NCBI GenBank assembly: GCA_964016885.1
Contig: OZ024741.1
Location: 390,290,001-390,354,000 of the forward strand
Length of the DNA: 64,000 nt
From: Eledone cirrhosa
Lineage: Eukaryota
Direction of reading: 5' to 3'
Part shown: positions 49,547 through 58,205 of the stretch, piece by piece
Layout: each line of letters begins with the position of its first letter
How positions within the stretch are numbered: the first letter of the stretch is position 1
Made by a program: the position numbers and the translations under genes
Notes under the pieces: generated by a model
Database searches by the model: none
What the model saw: the letters and a program-made list of their open reading frames with translations, nothing else
Told to the model about the DNA's origin: nothing

Positions 49547-49584
49547 CCTTTACCGGTTTCGCAGTTCTTCTGCTTTTCAAAAGG
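49547..49584 (-). ncRNA. U3-A8 variant minimal hammerhead ribozyme
   Basis: Reverse complement of 49658-49695. Confidence 0.8.
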
Positions 49585-49657
49585 TGAGTTGAGATGGAGG
49601 GTCTGTGGTTTTTCTCACATCATGTGAGAAAAACCACAGACCCTCCATCTCAACTCA

Positions 49658-49695
49658 CCTTTTGAAAAGCAGAAGAACTGCGAAACCGGTAAAGG
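49658..49695 (+). ncRNA. U3-A8 variant minimal hammerhead ribozyme
   Basis: CCTT-TTGAAAA-GCAG aagaa CTGC-GAAA-CCGG-TA-AAGG; all three stems form. Confidence 0.8.
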
Positions 49696-49954
49696 AGCCA
49701 AATAAATATATATATTTAAAAAAAAAATAAGACTCCAGTTGCATTTTCGATTTCATCTCTTTTTCTTTATACTTTCACTCGTGTAGGATACCTCGGTTAT
49801 TTTTCATTTTGTAAAAAAAAACCTCACTTTCTAATATATATATATATATATATATATATATATATATATATATATATATATGTGTGTGTGTGTGTGTGTG
49901 TGTGTGTGTGTGTGTGTGTGTGTGTGTGTGTGTGTGTGTGTGTGTGTGTGTTCA

Positions 49955-51850
49955 ATGAGACAACAAACAGATACAAAAAGTCATATTAGTTTCACGCTTT
50001 ATATGGGAAAAGGGGAAGAAAGTTCGACGTGTCAGGCTTAAGCCCTTCTTCAGGAGTACAAAACAGAGTCAGGGTCACAAATGGGAAACAGAAATAAAAG
50101 GGGTACAAGTAAAAAAATAAAAAATCTAAATGAAGAGTGTAAGGAAGACAATCCGTTAGTAGTCTTGGTAGCGAGTAGGGACGCAAGGTGGAGTGTGTGT
50201 GTGTATTAGTGTCGATATTATGTATAAGTGTATGTTTAAATGTGTAGGCGGCGGAAAAGACAGAGGATCCGGAGGGGCAAGGTAGAAGGGTGGTAGGTGA
50301 GGAGGAAGGGCAGTCGGTTGGTAGGGGGCGGTGGCGTGGTGTAAGAGCAGTGGTGTGATCGACGCCACGAGCATGAGTGAGGGCGGATTGGATCAGGGTA
50401 AGGGAGTATCGACATCTAGTGAAAAGACTGACTGAACCTCAAAAGCATGGGTTCGACTACACAGGCGGGGTAGACGGAGGAATTGGGAATAGAGGATGGA
50501 GTATTTTGTGTGGGTGGGGTGTGAGGAGGAGAAGTCGAAGTAGGCGTGAGAGTCCAAGGGCTTGAAATAGGTGGAGGTGATGAGGGTGCGATTGGAGGGG
50601 TCAATGGTTACAGAGATGTCCAGGAAGTTAACAGAAGTAGAGATAAAGGTGGTGAACTCAAGTGTGGGTTAGAAGAAAGCAGAGAAAGGAGTCAAGCTGG
50701 GCTCGTGTGAGAGATGTGGCACCAAAACAGTTGTTAATGTACCAACTGTACAGCTCGGGGGTTGGGCCAAAGTATTGTGAAAAGATTTGAGCCTCAACGT
50801 AGCCGACAAATAAGTTGGCGTAGCTGGGGCCCATTCTTGTACCCTCTTCGTCTGCTGGTAAATTTCACCCGAGAAGGAGAAGCAGTTGAGAGAGAGGACC
50901 AACTTGGTTAAGTGAATAAGGGTAGAGGTGTAAGGTAGAGGGAAGGGGTGAAGGTAAAGGAAGTATTGCAAGGCATAACTTCGGTATGGGGATGGCAGTG
51001 TATAGGGATTTGCTGTTGAGGATGAAGAGTAGGGTGGGGAGCCAGGTGGGAAGATGAAGGAGTCGAAGAGGTGGAGGGCATGGTTGGTGTCAGAAATATG
51101 GGGCGGTGGGCTGAAACAAGTTTAGTGGGGGGCAACTACACGCCGAGATAATGGAACGGCCGGGGTTGTCGGAATAGTGTAATTTGGGGAGGAAGTAGAT
51201 GGTAGAGGTCCATGGAGTGCAGCCGATAAGGTTGGTAGCCGAGGTGGATAGAAGAGAGGAAGCGACTAGCTGGCGTATAGTAGATTTGACCTGTTGCTGG
51301 TATTGAGGAGTGAGATCGGTGGCAAGGAGGCGGTAGAAGAGAGGGTTCCGGAGTTGCCGATAAACCTCCGTTGTGTAGAGGTTCATGCACCACACGGCCA
51401 CAGCGCCTCCCTTGTCGGCTGGCTTAAGGACAATGTGATGACGGTCACGGAGGGAGCGGAGGGCGGCGAGTTAGGCCCGGGAGATGTTGCATCGTTTGTA
51501 CCGTTTACAGAAATTGAAACGGTCCACAGCGTGATGGCAGACATCAACGAACCTATCCGGGGCACTGAATTATCCAGGTGACGGCGTCCAGTGTGGTGGT
51601 CAACAAGGTGTCTAAAGCGGTTCGGAGCCGGAGGATTGCCCTGAAAATGCGCGTGCAATTTGGTGTGGCACTGGAACAGTTCAATGTCCGTGAGGGTCCG
51701 AAATTCATCGCCACAAAGCGAGAGTGGTATGAAACGCAGAGCTCTGCAGAGGAACAAGACAGCAGAATGTGAGAGGGTAGAGTGACAACAAGTTGTGGGT
51801 GGGTGATCACCTTGGTCACTTTCACCGGCCTGTCTGTCGGATGTCGCTAG
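49955..51850 (-). mobile_element. Decayed Penelope-like element (RT region) with 3' hammerhead relic
   Basis: YFLPKLH.SDNPGRSIISACSC, LTKLVLSLNCFSFSGEIYQQTK. Confidence 0.8.
50024..50055 (-). ncRNA. Mutated minimal hammerhead (GAAA>GACA)
   Basis: TC-CTGAAGA-a-GGGC ttaa GCCT-GACA-CG-TC-GA. Confidence 0.55.
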
Positions 51851-52206
51851 CAGGTGAAATGTATGCTAAAGTGATATCGGTATAAATACAGAGTGTGTAA
51901 CTGGGACAGGAAGTCGATATCACCCCGGATGAAACTGGATATGTATTCACATACCCAGTTTCATCCGGGATGATATCGACTTCCTGTCCCATCTTCCCAA
52001 AACCACGGAAACGAATTCACTTCTACTTAGTTTTGATGTGGTAAGCCTTTACACCAACATTACACATGATTTAGGAATAAAGGCGGTTAAATACTGGGTA
52101 GAAAAACATAGAGAAGTGATTCCCATTAGACGCAGTTAAACTTATTCTGGAAAACAACACTTTCTTCTTCAATGGAAAGAATTACATCCAAATTAGAGGC
52201 ACAGCG

Positions 52207-53382
52207 ATGGGAACGAAGTTTGCTCCCGTTTACGCGAACTCTGTAATGGGATACTTAGAACAACAACTCTACCAAGAAATAGAGGAAAAATATAGTACTG
52301 ACTTTAGAAAGTACATTGAAAAATCTTGGAAGAGATACCTTGACGACTGTTTCATCATCTGGACAGAATCTCTAGATACTCTGGATGAGTTCAATATCCT
52401 CCTGAATAACCTACACCCATCTCTCCAATTCACAAAAGAGATGAGTAGGACCAAATTACCATTCCTAGATATAATGATAATCAAAAACGACACCACCATT
52501 ACCACGGATATATATTATAAACACACAGACACCCATCAATATCTGAATTTTAAGTCGTGCCATCCACCTCATACAAAACGCAACATCCCATACTGCTTAG
52601 CCAGAAGAATTTGTACCATTGTAGAAGATACGAATACCAGGTACAAACGCCTAACAGAACTAAGAGAATTTTTGCTCAAACAAAAATACCCATCTCTACT
52701 TATAGAAAATGGCATACAGCGGGCTATAAAAATACCTATACAACAACTTAGGACAACCCAAGGAAGAAGAAACCAAGAACTGGTCATATCATTTATAATG
52801 ACACACAACCCATGTCACCAGAATATCTTCAACACTGCCAAAGCAAACCTACCGATCATTGCTCAAAGTAATGAATTAAAAGGCTTAATCACAGATCGAT
52901 CTTTGACTCTTAGTAAAAGACAGCCGAAAAATTTGAAGCAATTACTAACAAAAGCAAAGTTTGACCTTAACAACAAAGACCAATCATTCACTGTATCTAA
53001 ATGCAATGATAGTCGATGTGGCACATGTCAATCCATATACGCCGGTCAATATATGAAAACAAAAACTGGAAAAATATTCCCAAATGCAAATGTGAACTGC
53101 AAAAGCAGAAATCTAATTTACTGCATTAAATGCCCTAATTGTGAAGAACTATATGTCGGTCAAACTGGAAATGCACTATCGGAAGGTGCGCGGGTACACC
53201 GACAGCAAATCAGAGACCCAAATGTCCGTCAGATACCCCTAAGTAATCATCTAGCAACATGTGGTCAGGAAATATTTATAATATTCCCATTCTACAAATT
53301 ACACAGCCCAAGTGAAATCAAGAGAAAAATCAAAGAAAAGAATTTTATTGATAAATTCAAACCCAAGCTAAATGAACATTAA
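52207..53382 (+). pseudogene. Penelope RT (C-terminal half) plus GIY-YIG endonuclease, 391 aa open
   Basis: MGTKFAP.YAN, RYLDD, LPFLD, YYKHTD, C..RC.TC, NLIYCIKCPNCEELYVGQT. Confidence 0.92.
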
Positions 53383-53747
53383 TAATGGGGTATCCTACTA
53401 TGACTATGACTACTACCACTAACAACAACAACAACAACAACAACAATAATAATAAAAGTGATGTTGATAGTGATGATTACTAGAAAATGCTATTTTCATC
53501 ATTTCTAAAAATAGCAAAACAATTGATGCTTTGGATAGGGTCAATTAAGTAGTCGTTAGACATCCTCAACCAACCGTGACGCCTAAACCAATCAGCTTTA
53601 GTAATCCAATGAAACTACACACCGATTGGTCGAAATACAGTTTGCAAGATTTAGCATTCTGGAGCCACTTTTCACTGTATATAAGGCACAAAATTTACCC
53701 ATCTCATTACAGTTGAAAATTGCAAACTTGACTGTCACCACACATTA

Positions 53748-57044: not shown

Positions 57045-57082
57045 GCCCTGATGAGTCCTTAATAGGACGAAAGATTGTTGGC
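57045..57082 (+). ncRNA. Minimal hammerhead with imperfect stem III
   Basis: Same motif as 54340-54377, in the other arm. Confidence 0.75.
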
Positions 57083-57457
57083 TAATAAAGACTTTTGATG
57101 TATTGAAGGCTTCTTTGGTTTATTTTCATAATATATATATATATATATATATGTAGAAGTTCTATTTAAATTGTTGGGATACAACAAGCAAATATTTTTA
57201 TAACTGATATAAAGCACTCAACAAATTATTGGAGTAAAAATACGATATATTAACAAATGGAAACTATATTTATAAAACCATATTTATTTCATTATACGAC
57301 GGCTTAAATCTACTGTGATTTAAACATATCCGACACTAATTTGCATAATAGACTAAATAAATTTAATAACCCCACTATCCGGGAGCTTCCAACAGAAATG
57401 GTCGCATTCTTTAAGGCTATGTCAATATTTATTTATAAAACTGATCTATATTATATT

Positions 57458-57511
57458 TTATCTGATGAAAGCACACCATAATTTAACTTGGTGTCCTTGA
57501 AATATGTATAA
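57458..57511 (+). ncRNA. Degenerate hammerhead inside a foldback (57240-57292 versus 57511-57562)
   Basis: TTAT-CTGATGA-AAGcACACCA...TGGTGTcCTT-GAAA-TATG-TA-TAA. Confidence 0.6.
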
Positions 57512-57761
57512 TGAAATAAATATGGTTTTATAAATATAGTTTCCATTTGTTAATATATCGTATATATATATATATATATATATATATATATATATATATA
57601 TATATAAGCAAGATGTATGGTAGGTCGTATGTGAATCGCAATGATCACGTCTGACCTACCAAATATGCGACGGTAGCTAGTTAAGCTCTATGCGTATAAG
57701 CAGAGCAGAAATATTAATGAAAAAGAACAAAGGAACTATTATGACATTATAACAAGTTTAT

Positions 57762-57808
57762 TGCCGACAGCCGTTTCGTCCGACCATATGGTGGGACTTT
57801 TCAAGGCA
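57762..57808 (-). ncRNA. U3-A8 variant hammerhead ribozyme
   Basis: Reverse complement of 58159-58205. Confidence 0.8.
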
Positions 57809-58158
57809 TATAACATGTGATTATAAGTTCATTATTTACATCAACATATCACTTAAGACTAGCAGTTTGAAATTGTGGTATATATCAGCAGCTCCGCTTG
57901 TATATTTGGGGTCTATATTCTAAGGGGGCTCTTTTATATTATTTGTCGGAATTGTAAAAGGGATGGATTATGGGGAGTTAAGAGAATTTGAAAATGGTCA
58001 GTGAAGGTTAAGCTCTTCCGACAACTAATATAAAAGAGCCCCCTTAGAATATAGACCCCAAATATACAAGCGGAGCTGCTGATGTATACCAAAATTTCAA
58101 ACTGCTAGTCTTAAGTGATACGTTGATGTAAATAATGAACTTACAATCACATGTTATA

Positions 58159-58205
58159 TGCCTTGAAAAGTCCCACCATATGGTCGGACGAAACGGCTGT
58201 CGGCA
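58159..58205 (+). ncRNA. U3-A8 variant hammerhead ribozyme
   Basis: TGCC-TTGAAAA-GTCCcACCA ta TGGTcGGAC-GAAA-CGGCTG-TC-GGCA; GUC site. Confidence 0.82.

Follow-up and report, generated by a model that had tools for sequence, protein, structure and literature searches.

In the genome of Eledone cirrhosa, two abundant families of Penelope-type elements terminate, to judge from their sequence, in hammerhead motifs whose C3-G8 core pair is replaced by U3-A8, and self-cutting of these motifs is predicted. We consider it probable that both families, termed A and B here, carry minimal type I hammerheads at Penelope 3' ends, with an already published U3-A8 core, that these would cut as dimers, likely slowly, and that the variant core likely arose twice. 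The window referred to below is the whole 64-kb stretch of DNA that was analysed.

Structure of the family A and family B insertions

The following features define the two insertions.

49654 to 49697, plus strand: family A type I hammerhead, with U3-A8 core at 49662-49668, stem II at 49669-49681 and palindrome ACCGGU at 49685-49690
49545 to 49588, minus strand: mirror of the family A hammerhead, core from 49580, in the left arm of one shared insertion
49471 to 49833, unstranded: family A two-armed, 5'-truncated insertion, arms 49471-49620 and 49622-49771, (TA)n at both ends, ACTCGTGT at 49777
58154 to 58209, plus strand: family B type I hammerhead, with U3-A8 core at 58163-58169, stem II GUCC/GGAC plus 3 bp, and palindrome ACGGCUGU
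57758 to 57813, minus strand: mirror of the family B hammerhead, core from 57804 (heptamer 57798-57804)
57606 to 58256, unstranded: family B two-armed insertion, arms 57711-57951 and 58016-58256, (TA)n at the ends

The preliminary description had placed the heptamer TTGAAAA at 49658/49547 and 58159/57762; it is present at +49662/-49580 and +58163/-57804, the plus-strand starts lying 4 nt later, and the minus-strand heptamer of family A occupies 49574-49580. Apart from U3-A8, all hammerhead core positions of both families are canonical, and a Watson-Crick 3-8 pair is present. Each motif has a stem I of 4 bp with a bulged extension, and a stem II of 4 bp, to which family B adds 3 more bp past a C.C mismatch; GAAA follows. 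The triplets are GUA in family A and GUC in family B, with predicted cut sites after A49691 and C58201, respectively. The stems had been described as intact; in both families, stems I, II and III surround the core, which opens at stem I, with an A15.1-U16.1 pair and an NUH triplet, and stem III comprises just 1-2 bp in the monomer. The palindrome ACCGGU would serve as a self-complementary stem III segment in a family A dimer, and ACGGCUGU is likewise self-complementary, so that a stem III dimer is possible in family B. Computed folding energies for family A were +1.9 kcal/mol for the monomer and -16.5 kcal/mol for the dimer, the dimeric hammerhead fold lying 6.8 kcal/mol above the cofold optimum; in family B, the dimer fold is near-optimal (-38.7 vs -39.2 kcal/mol).

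In each family, the pair of motifs forms a single inverted repeat with arms that are 98% complementary, and the motifs sit directly ahead of uneven 3' ends of two-armed insertions into (TA)n. The right arm of family A bears approximately 60 additional tail bases and the left arm of family B approximately 105; both 3' end points of the family A insertion were seen again in other copies in public reads. A hammerhead near the 3' end, a (TA)n target, an inverted 5'-truncated copy and a tail at one end are hallmarks of Penelope-type insertion, in agreement with the earlier placement of these motifs at Penelope-element ends. The two arms of an insertion were also considered as a dimer in cis; this reading was rejected because the arms are sense and antisense and pair in a hairpin of -170 kcal/mol. 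No reverse transcriptase or GIY-YIG ORF is attached to the copies of A, B or the related locus C, which extend no more than 210 nt beyond the core on its upstream side, and hence their clade was assigned by non-coding likeness.

A strict descriptor that left positions 3 and 8 free gave seven matches in the window, five with U-A and two with C-G, and none with the other 14 base combinations; 100 block-wise dinucleotide shuffles yielded 0.01 U-A matches per window (maximum 1). The fifth U-A match, at +12660, is AU-rich and a candidate only. The GC content of the setting is approximately 30-38%. An Rfam search (E up to 1) returned no match on A, B, C or the D loci described below, and its model RF00163 gave even the canonical comparator E 25.8 bits, against a gathering score of 34; the miRNA matches from Rfam were palindromes or microsatellites, all under the gathering score, and were discarded. 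Among viral contigs, a degenerate U3-A8 pattern found 16 loci and no minimal type I motif, and two window ORFs used as protein queries found no relative there. The same pattern gave at least 120 loci in metagenome contigs (24 of 64 parts), nearly all due to chance or prokaryotic; one locus, L074, has the full minimal U3-A8 motif but no recognisable element ORF.

Related loci and the probable origins of the U3-A8 pair

Beyond the two insertions, the window contains decayed U3-A8 motifs, a broken protein-coding piece and two comparators.

2378 to 2445, plus strand: locus C, related to family A but decayed, with TTGAAAA at 2411 and ACTCGTGT at 2566
23936 to 24216, minus strand: locus D1, a decayed U3-A8 motif, core from 24019, short inverted 5' piece at 24157-24216
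22330 to 22640, minus strand: locus D2, sister copy of D1, motif at 22497, ACCGGU/A intact, ACTCGTGT at 22351
23237 to 23840, minus strand: C-terminal region of Penelope type, broken, encoding a CX4CxxC linker, GIY-YIG (PF01541, E 6e-6) and CCHH, Neptune/Nematis-type
57038 to 57091, plus strand: comparator E, a hammerhead with canonical C3-G8 (core 57048, mirrored at -54374) at the end of a Hydra-clade element
53743 to 53793, plus strand: comparator N, a C3-G8 hammerhead-like motif (core 53753) that has G for U4 and belongs to the 3' UTR of the Neptune/Nematis-type ORF at 52120-53382, ACTCGTGT at 53930

The decayed copies, previously given at 2408 and 23986/22466, retain TTGAAAA at 2411 and 24019, but at 22497 position 3 has been removed by a 3-nt deletion, so that only A8 is readable. 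In locus C, GAAA has become GCAA (A13C) and stem I consists of three A-U pairs; a 5-bp stem II and ACCGGU/A are kept, and the fourth pair of stem II is U-A instead of the G-C of family A. Neither D locus has an intact stem I, which in D1 is reduced to one contiguous pair, with one stem II pair and the palindrome broken. The 49662 and 2411 loci are 75% identical across 65 nt (E 1e-7), and the 2411 and 22497 loci have 5' and 3' segments in common. Thus, the eight places and four families of the preliminary description reduce to two lineages, because the pairs of A and of B are mirror arms of single insertions and because 49662, 2411 and 24019/22497 are related: by sequence similarity, these loci form one lineage and 58163 a separate one.

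Family B may be tied to the Hydra clade through element E, whose two ORF pieces, at 54749-55570 on the minus strand and 56350-56733 on the plus strand, encode a CxCX5C linker and no CCHH. The 3' end and tail of B align with those of E (z 7.2; 0/2000 shuffles as good; tail alone, 5/2000), and B matches this C3-G8 element on either side of the core; there is no comparable match to eight other motif regions and no alignment with E upstream of the motif (621/2000 shuffles). By sequence likeness at the 3' end, B, which has no ORF of its own, appears to be a sister of E. Across 19 Hydra-type loci of other animals, hammerhead matches occurred in eight, and all 16 were C3-G8. A covariance model built on seven of these, with L150 and L152 left out of the alignment because the aligner had misregistered their stem III, placed B (26.0 bits, rough E 4e-5) and E (25.6 bits) at the top in the window; A, C and D were absent from its matches there (E up to 5). 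When seven segments, comprising U3-A8 motifs, decayed motifs and comparators, were folded as monomers, only E was more stable than shuffled sequences, and the z-scores were uninformative.

The lineage of A, C and D looks Neptune/Nematis-type, as suggested by a shared 8-mer and by the position of D2. The ORFs at 52120 and 23237 have the CX2-5CxxC linker and CCHH endonuclease by which Neptune and Nematis are recognised, and the 23237 to 23840 piece is 43% identical to the 52120 ORF. D2 follows this piece downstream, in the same orientation, and the two are probably continuous, given their positions. ACTCGTGT has four sites in the window, one each behind A, C, D2 and N at a distance of 115-177 nt, and none occurs in 67 kb of Hydra-type loci; the 8-mer was spotted post hoc, and its count of four does not exceed that of shuffles (mean 1.3, maximum 4). 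Overall similarity of A to N was not significant (78/1000). Other families in the window have cores with U4A or U4G.

Because B appears to be sister to a C3-G8 Hydra-clade element and the other lineage to be Neptune/Nematis-type, the double change from C3-G8 to U3-A8 likely arose at least twice among the window lineages. A single origin of all window U3-A8 motifs, with the 3' module spread across clades by recombination or template switching, is very unlikely. It could draw on the identical heptamer in all of them, including A at N7, and on nested or adjacent insertions that offer an opportunity for exchange. However, similarity between A and B is undetectable (357/1000 shuffles), the two have different triplets, palindromes and stems I and II, N7 varies within B, and B resembles E on both sides of the core.

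Family state in public reads and published U3-A8 hammerheads

Public reads demonstrate that U3-A8 is the family state in A and B and not the decay of single copies; a canonical C3-G8 consensus, which would have spoken against the earlier proposal, was not seen. In run X1, no variant at position 3 or 8 was present above the listing threshold of 3% for family B (326 contigs) or 2% for family A (7,399 contigs, making A very abundant), and all A>G and T>C places were accounted for elsewhere. Both positions were likewise free of listed variants in family A of a second organism (run X5, 16 contigs), and nothing was found at 3 or 8 among the raw-read rows listed (503 for B; 3,326 and 3,696 for A). 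For family B, runs X7 (one partial contig) and X8 (none) were left out. Listed variants within the B motif fell at N7, in loop II and at one stem I position that retains a U.G pair. Constrained positions, which were picked post hoc, carried fewer listed variants than flanks, at 1/43 vs 39/332 (p 0.04) and 2/34 vs 37/167 (p 0.02), counts that exclude 15 and 54 further rows.

The U3-A8 variant itself was published in 2011-2014, and its earlier characterisation as a tolerated natural variant agrees with the accessible parts of PMC3088659 and PMC4209133. In the former (Perreault 2011), several natural hammerheads show covariation of C3-G8 to U3-A8 and are cited as having in vitro activity; the accessible text does not link them to Penelope elements and gives no rate for a minimal dimer. 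In the latter (Cervera and De la Pena 2014), a U3-A8 descriptor was applied to Penelope elements, with approximately 1,300 matches, and the supplement lists the heptamer UUGAAAA beside a Schistosoma japonicum relative with CUGAAGA. The Cercyon repeats of Schistosoma mansoni reported there resemble the present families in having U3-A8 type I hammerheads in Penelope-element repeats, mostly single or on opposite strands 100-700 bp apart. Cercyon hammerheads have nearly no stem III, a stem II of 7-8 bp and an additional base after A9, whereas the families here have a palindromic stem III of 6-8 nt, a stem II of 4 bp (A) or 4+3 bp (B) and another host, and form two lineages beside C3-G8 sisters.

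According to the accessible text of Craig et al. 2021 (PMC8557442), Hydra-clade elements have the CxCX5C linker without CCHH, canonical hammerheads of the type that B matches, (TA)n targets, inverted 5'-truncated copies and a one-end tail, which is 30-40 bp there and longer here. That text still calls the function of Penelope hammerheads unclear and uses a CUGANGA descriptor; in the supplement as seen, three U3-A8 strings were not found in hammerhead context, although line breaks may hide matches. A literature search that was thin in subscription papers turned up no account of U3-A8 in elements of cephalopods or of the Hydra clade. The preliminary description had expected CUGANGA-based searches to miss this lineage. 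Such strings and Rfam do miss it, but a U3-A8 descriptor had been run on Penelope elements in 2014, and B is not lost to searches in general, since the C3-G8 Hydra-type model ranks it first in the window.

Proposed mechanism and alternative readings

We propose that two motifs on one tandem transcript, made from a master copy, would pair via the stem III palindrome. U3-A8 would preserve the tertiary Watson-Crick pair that places the 2'-OH of nucleotide 8 as general acid, with G12 as base, and cutting after GUA (A) or GUC (B) would release unit-length RNA for use by the element's reverse transcriptase. The 3-8 pair likely changed by two transitions with a U.G wobble as intermediate, and did so separately in one Hydra-type and one Neptune/Nematis-type lineage. 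The window copies may be dead-end insertion products, whose read-through RNA would fold into a long hairpin that buries the motif.

It is possible, and we hold this tentatively, that A, B or both are not stubs of coding elements but non-coding, retrozyme-like units moved by Penelope enzymes, in which the hammerhead would cut tandem units to give small circular RNAs. Metazoan non-LTR retrozymes, as far as the accessible text of PMC7229834 and 10.64898/2026.07.22.740005 goes, are likewise type I, in need of a partner copy and Penelope-linked, the latter describing animal retrozymes as Penelope derivatives; the great abundance of family A, the lack of an attached ORF in A, B and C, and the failure of B to align with E upstream of the motif also fit. 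Retrozymes in these texts, however, form tandem units of approximately 170-400 nt, and none is present at the window loci; no tail-to-5' joint appeared in reads, a weak test with short reads; the copies are too short upstream to include an ORF or unit boundary; and D2 sits behind an endonuclease piece. Such an origin would alter the host element and not the reading of the core, and it fits most of the explanation that we prefer.

The preliminary description had also argued from the double change to selected catalysis. The change is consistent with selection but does not demonstrate it: both changes are transitions that could pass via U.G, a master copy gives uniformity, and deep mutational scanning of one type III hammerhead gave rescue by the G3-C8 swap only, with U3-A8 of low activity. 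The alternative that a weak or inactive motif drifted almost neutrally is unlikely. Under it, a few master copies would have fixed AT-biased transitions and spread for other reasons, with the motif acting as a structural signal for reverse transcriptase and not for cutting. In favour of drift, U3-A8 had low activity in that scan, both changes are transitions in an AT-rich setting, U4A and U4G cores occur in other window families, and metazoan minimal Penelope hammerheads cut poorly in vitro even as dimers, their authors allowing roles other than cleavage. Against drift, none of the seven strict-descriptor matches has an unpaired 3-8 combination, single reversions stayed under the listing threshold in run X1, and U3-A8 is cited as active in vitro in the accessible part of PMC3088659; moreover, two unrelated lineages have retained the NUH triplet, the palindrome and every other catalytic position, whereas N7 and loop II vary. 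Going beyond the two-origin dimer hammerhead that we prefer, U3-A8 might be a repeatedly selected setting of Penelope hammerheads (Hydra-type, Neptune/Nematis-type and schistosome Cercyon), in which a slower or context-dependent cut favours amplification; we regard this extension as somewhat unlikely.

What the window adds to the published variant is modest, namely U3-A8 in two lineages beside C3-G8 sisters. CUGANGA descriptors, such as the one in the accessible text of PMC8557442, and Rfam RF00163 undercount hammerheads in a genome where a U3-A8 family is very abundant. A compensatory change made twice in a catalytic pair may be a sign of constraint on an active fold, and two origins beside C3-G8 sisters would supply matched natural pairs for cleavage comparison, with B and E as a ready comparison of U-A and C-G cores. 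If repeated selection is true, such sister pairs would allow a direct test of the part that cleavage rate plays in Penelope transposition.

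The U3-A8 motifs and their status across the families

In the window, AT-rich animal DNA with many microsatellites and packed with retroelement fragments, a descriptor with positions 3 and 8 left free recovered the core UUGAAAA in four complete type I hammerhead motifs. A stricter descriptor gave seven matches, five with U-A and two with C-G at positions 3 and 8, and zero for the remaining 14 combinations; shuffled sequence gave 0.01 U-A matches per window (100 shuffles). The decayed motifs claimed by the preliminary description were also present.

Complete and decayed U3-A8 motifs in the window (core starts of families A and B from the descriptor scan)
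49662, + strand: family A core
49580, - strand: family A core, second copy
58163, + strand: family B core
57804, - strand: family B core, second copy
2411, + strand: decayed motif C, GCAA in place of GAAA
24019, - strand: decayed motif D1, stem II pair and palindrome broken, stem I reduced to one contiguous pair
22497, - strand: decayed motif D2, position 3 lost by deletion

Family A consists of stem I CUC[AC]CUU/AAGGAG, stem II GCAG/CUGC, the palindrome ACCGGU and the triplet GUA; family B has stem I UUAU[A]UGCC/GGCAAUAA, stem II GUCC/GGAC plus 3 bp, the palindrome ACGGCUGU and the triplet GUC.

Reads and contigs from public sequencing runs, aligned at 80-82% likeness, which is loose enough to let in a C3-G8 sister, gave U3-A8 as the state of both families; the canonical C3-G8 consensus that the preliminary description had named as speaking against its reading was not what they carried. 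For family B (query 57610-58015), run X1 yielded 326 contigs, X21 503 reads, X7 one partial contig and X8 none, and among the variants listed for X1 and X21, beyond which there are 15 more, none lay at position 3 or 8. All eight A>G and four T>C places in X1 were assigned to other positions, and within the motif the listed variants affected N7, loop II and a single base of stem I, where a U.G pair is retained. For family A (query 49622-49830), the 7,399 contigs of X1, a run that may be closely related to the source of the window itself and hence lends no independent support, held zero A>G places and four T>C places outside positions 3 and 8. No change at 3 or 8 was likewise seen in the 16 contigs of X5, from a second organism, or among the variants listed for 3,326 X21 and 3,696 X22 reads, where 54 further variants leave room for small minorities. 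Listed variants were sparser at constrained positions than in flanks in two post hoc and weak comparisons (1/43 versus 39/332, p 0.04; 2/34 versus 37/167, p 0.02).

Several other features were observed. A possible extra U3-A8 motif at +12646-12705 (core 12660) is a single AU-rich copy whose cleavage position is occupied by G; it weakly resembles a canonical motif at 57462. Further canonical C3-G8 hammerheads, of at least four other families, lie at +1836/-1716, +19996, -6497, +54071, +57462 and -50053, and most are undetected by Rfam at E-values up to 1. A tandem and inverted repeat block at 21103-22325 (arms of 349-415 nt, 95-100% complementary) weakly matches an analysis-built hammerhead model (E-value 2.3). 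On the - strand, 29368-32982 and 35422-38880 each hold a near-intact ORF2 of a non-LTR retrotransposon, presumably Tx1/L1-like. The two copies stand in tandem and encode endonuclease and reverse transcriptase (up to 1152 aa), and ORF1-like frames lie upstream.

Lineages and host elements

Each mirror pair, +49662/-49580 and +58163/-57804, is one insertion, because it forms one inverted repeat with arms 98% complementary. A shares 75% identity with C over 65 nt (E-value 1e-7), the fourth stem II pair being G-C in A and U-A in C; C and D share an upstream 45-nt segment (0/500 shuffles) and a 3' segment (0/300 shuffles), and ACCGGU/A is common to A, C and D. Similarity between B and A was not found (357/1000 shuffles). 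The four families of the preliminary description therefore reduce to two lineages, A/C/D and B, and U3-A8 likely had a double origin, each of which would have taken two transitions via a U.G wobble.

At both loci a copy that is inverted and 5'-truncated sits at (TA)n targets, and only one end carries a tail, which is the layout described for Penelope-like elements in the available part of PMC8557442. Both 3' end points of family A recur in other copies. Neither locus contains an ORF; A and B may be either stubs of coding elements or retrozyme-like units.

B aligns with the C3-G8 comparator E (core 57048) over motif, 3' end and tail, and their cores differ at positions 3, 7 and 8 only. The likeness holds for 3' end plus tail with the core excluded (z 7.2, 0/2000 shuffles) and for the tail by itself (5/2000 shuffles); upstream of the motif B and E do not match. 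E is the end of a Hydra-clade ORF, with a CxCX5C linker and without CCHH, which has 75 homologues, one of them named, from Apostichopus japonicus. We compared 19 loci (L137-L155) from other animals that encode Hydra-type Penelope proteins and lie in prokaryote genome bins, where they probably represent DNA of host animals that ended up in MAGs and symbiont assemblies. All 16 hammerhead matches, spread over 8 of the 19 loci, were C3-G8; a few of them have a 6-nt palindrome and may come from neighbouring elements. The alignment of seven of these hammerheads has 98% paired cells, with four pairs showing two-sided changes, and a model built from them ranked B and E top in the window, with A, C and D absent from its matches up to E-value 5. 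The alignment with E, the C3-G8 state of Hydra-type loci and this ranking together argue that the 3' module of B belongs to the Hydra type and that its U3-A8 is the derived state. The earlier claim that standard searches miss U3-A8 holds in the window for CUGANGA strings and Rfam; it fails for a type-matched covariance model, which ranks B first with E.

For A, C and D, a link to Neptune/Nematis-type elements is suggested more weakly than that of B to Hydra, by one post hoc 8-mer and by the position of D2. ACTCGTGT occurs 115-155 nt behind the core in A, C and D2 and 177 nt behind it in N, a comparator of that type (53753, ORF 52120-53382), at 49777, 2566, 22351 (- strand) and 53930, each behind a hammerhead and a short distance ahead of the (TA)n end. 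It is a candidate 3'-end recognition signal of such elements. The N motif is C3-G8, with its U4 read as G. A GIY-YIG piece with 43% identity to N precedes D2.

A Hydra-type element with an ORF at 58449-59162 carries a hammerhead-like 3' motif with the core CAGAAGA (U4A) in five of five copies at three loci (+60392, +60866, -60630, +6166, -14537). It has U.U at the stem II base and a possible stem III of 4-5 bp, and its predicted monomer fold does not yield a hammerhead. A fixed U4A core would be rarer than U3-A8.

Predicted activity and significance of the variant

In the active hammerhead core, C3 and G8 form a Watson-Crick pair; G12 is the proposed base and the 2'-OH of nucleotide 8 the proposed acid. 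Motifs with a palindromic stem III of 1-2 bp act as dimers, according to the available text of Cervera and De la Pena 2014 (PMC4209133) among other sources. The computed family A hammerhead fold cannot form as a monomer (+1.9 kcal/mol) and reaches -16.5 kcal/mol as a dimer versus a cofold optimum of -23.3; the family B dimer reaches -38.7 kcal/mol, within 0.5 of its optimum. Tandem transcripts of master copies would be cleaved after GUA (A) or GUC (B), and the unit RNA so released would serve reverse transcription. That the paired arms of the window make up the dimer was rejected: one of them is antisense, and for the A locus the computed fold is a hairpin of -170 kcal/mol. Full activity of U3-A8 was counted against, because in a pairwise mutational scan of a type III hammerhead only G3-C8 gave rescue (PMC9901934, in the part available) and minimal Penelope hammerheads cleave poorly in vitro.

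Natural U3-A8 covariation, with in vitro activity cited, appears in the accessible portion of Perreault 2011 (PMC3088659). As far as its available sections go, Cervera and De la Pena 2014 (PMC4209133) describes U3-A8 hammerheads of Cercyon Penelope elements and a U3-A8 descriptor with about 1,300 matches, and its supplement contains UUGAAAA; the descriptor search proposed by the preliminary description had thus already been done in another animal. No paper reporting U3-A8 in cephalopod or Hydra-clade elements was found, in a literature coverage that was incomplete and lacked key papers.

Outside the window, a complete minimal type I U3-A8 hammerhead was observed at L074:241-296, on a metagenome contig resembling animal DNA (GCCA/UGGC, GUCC/GGAC, ACCGGU, GUC), where no element ORF was recognised. 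U3-A8 hammerhead-like matches also occur in prokaryotic-looking contigs, namely L117, with a 6-bp stem I, and the L018 group of about 30 near-identical gut contigs.

U3-A8 is here a real, family-wide variant that had been described before and is now seen in a new host. What is added is its likely double origin and the sister pair of B and E, which offers a direct test of the role of the 3-8 pair, and of the cut, for Penelope elements.
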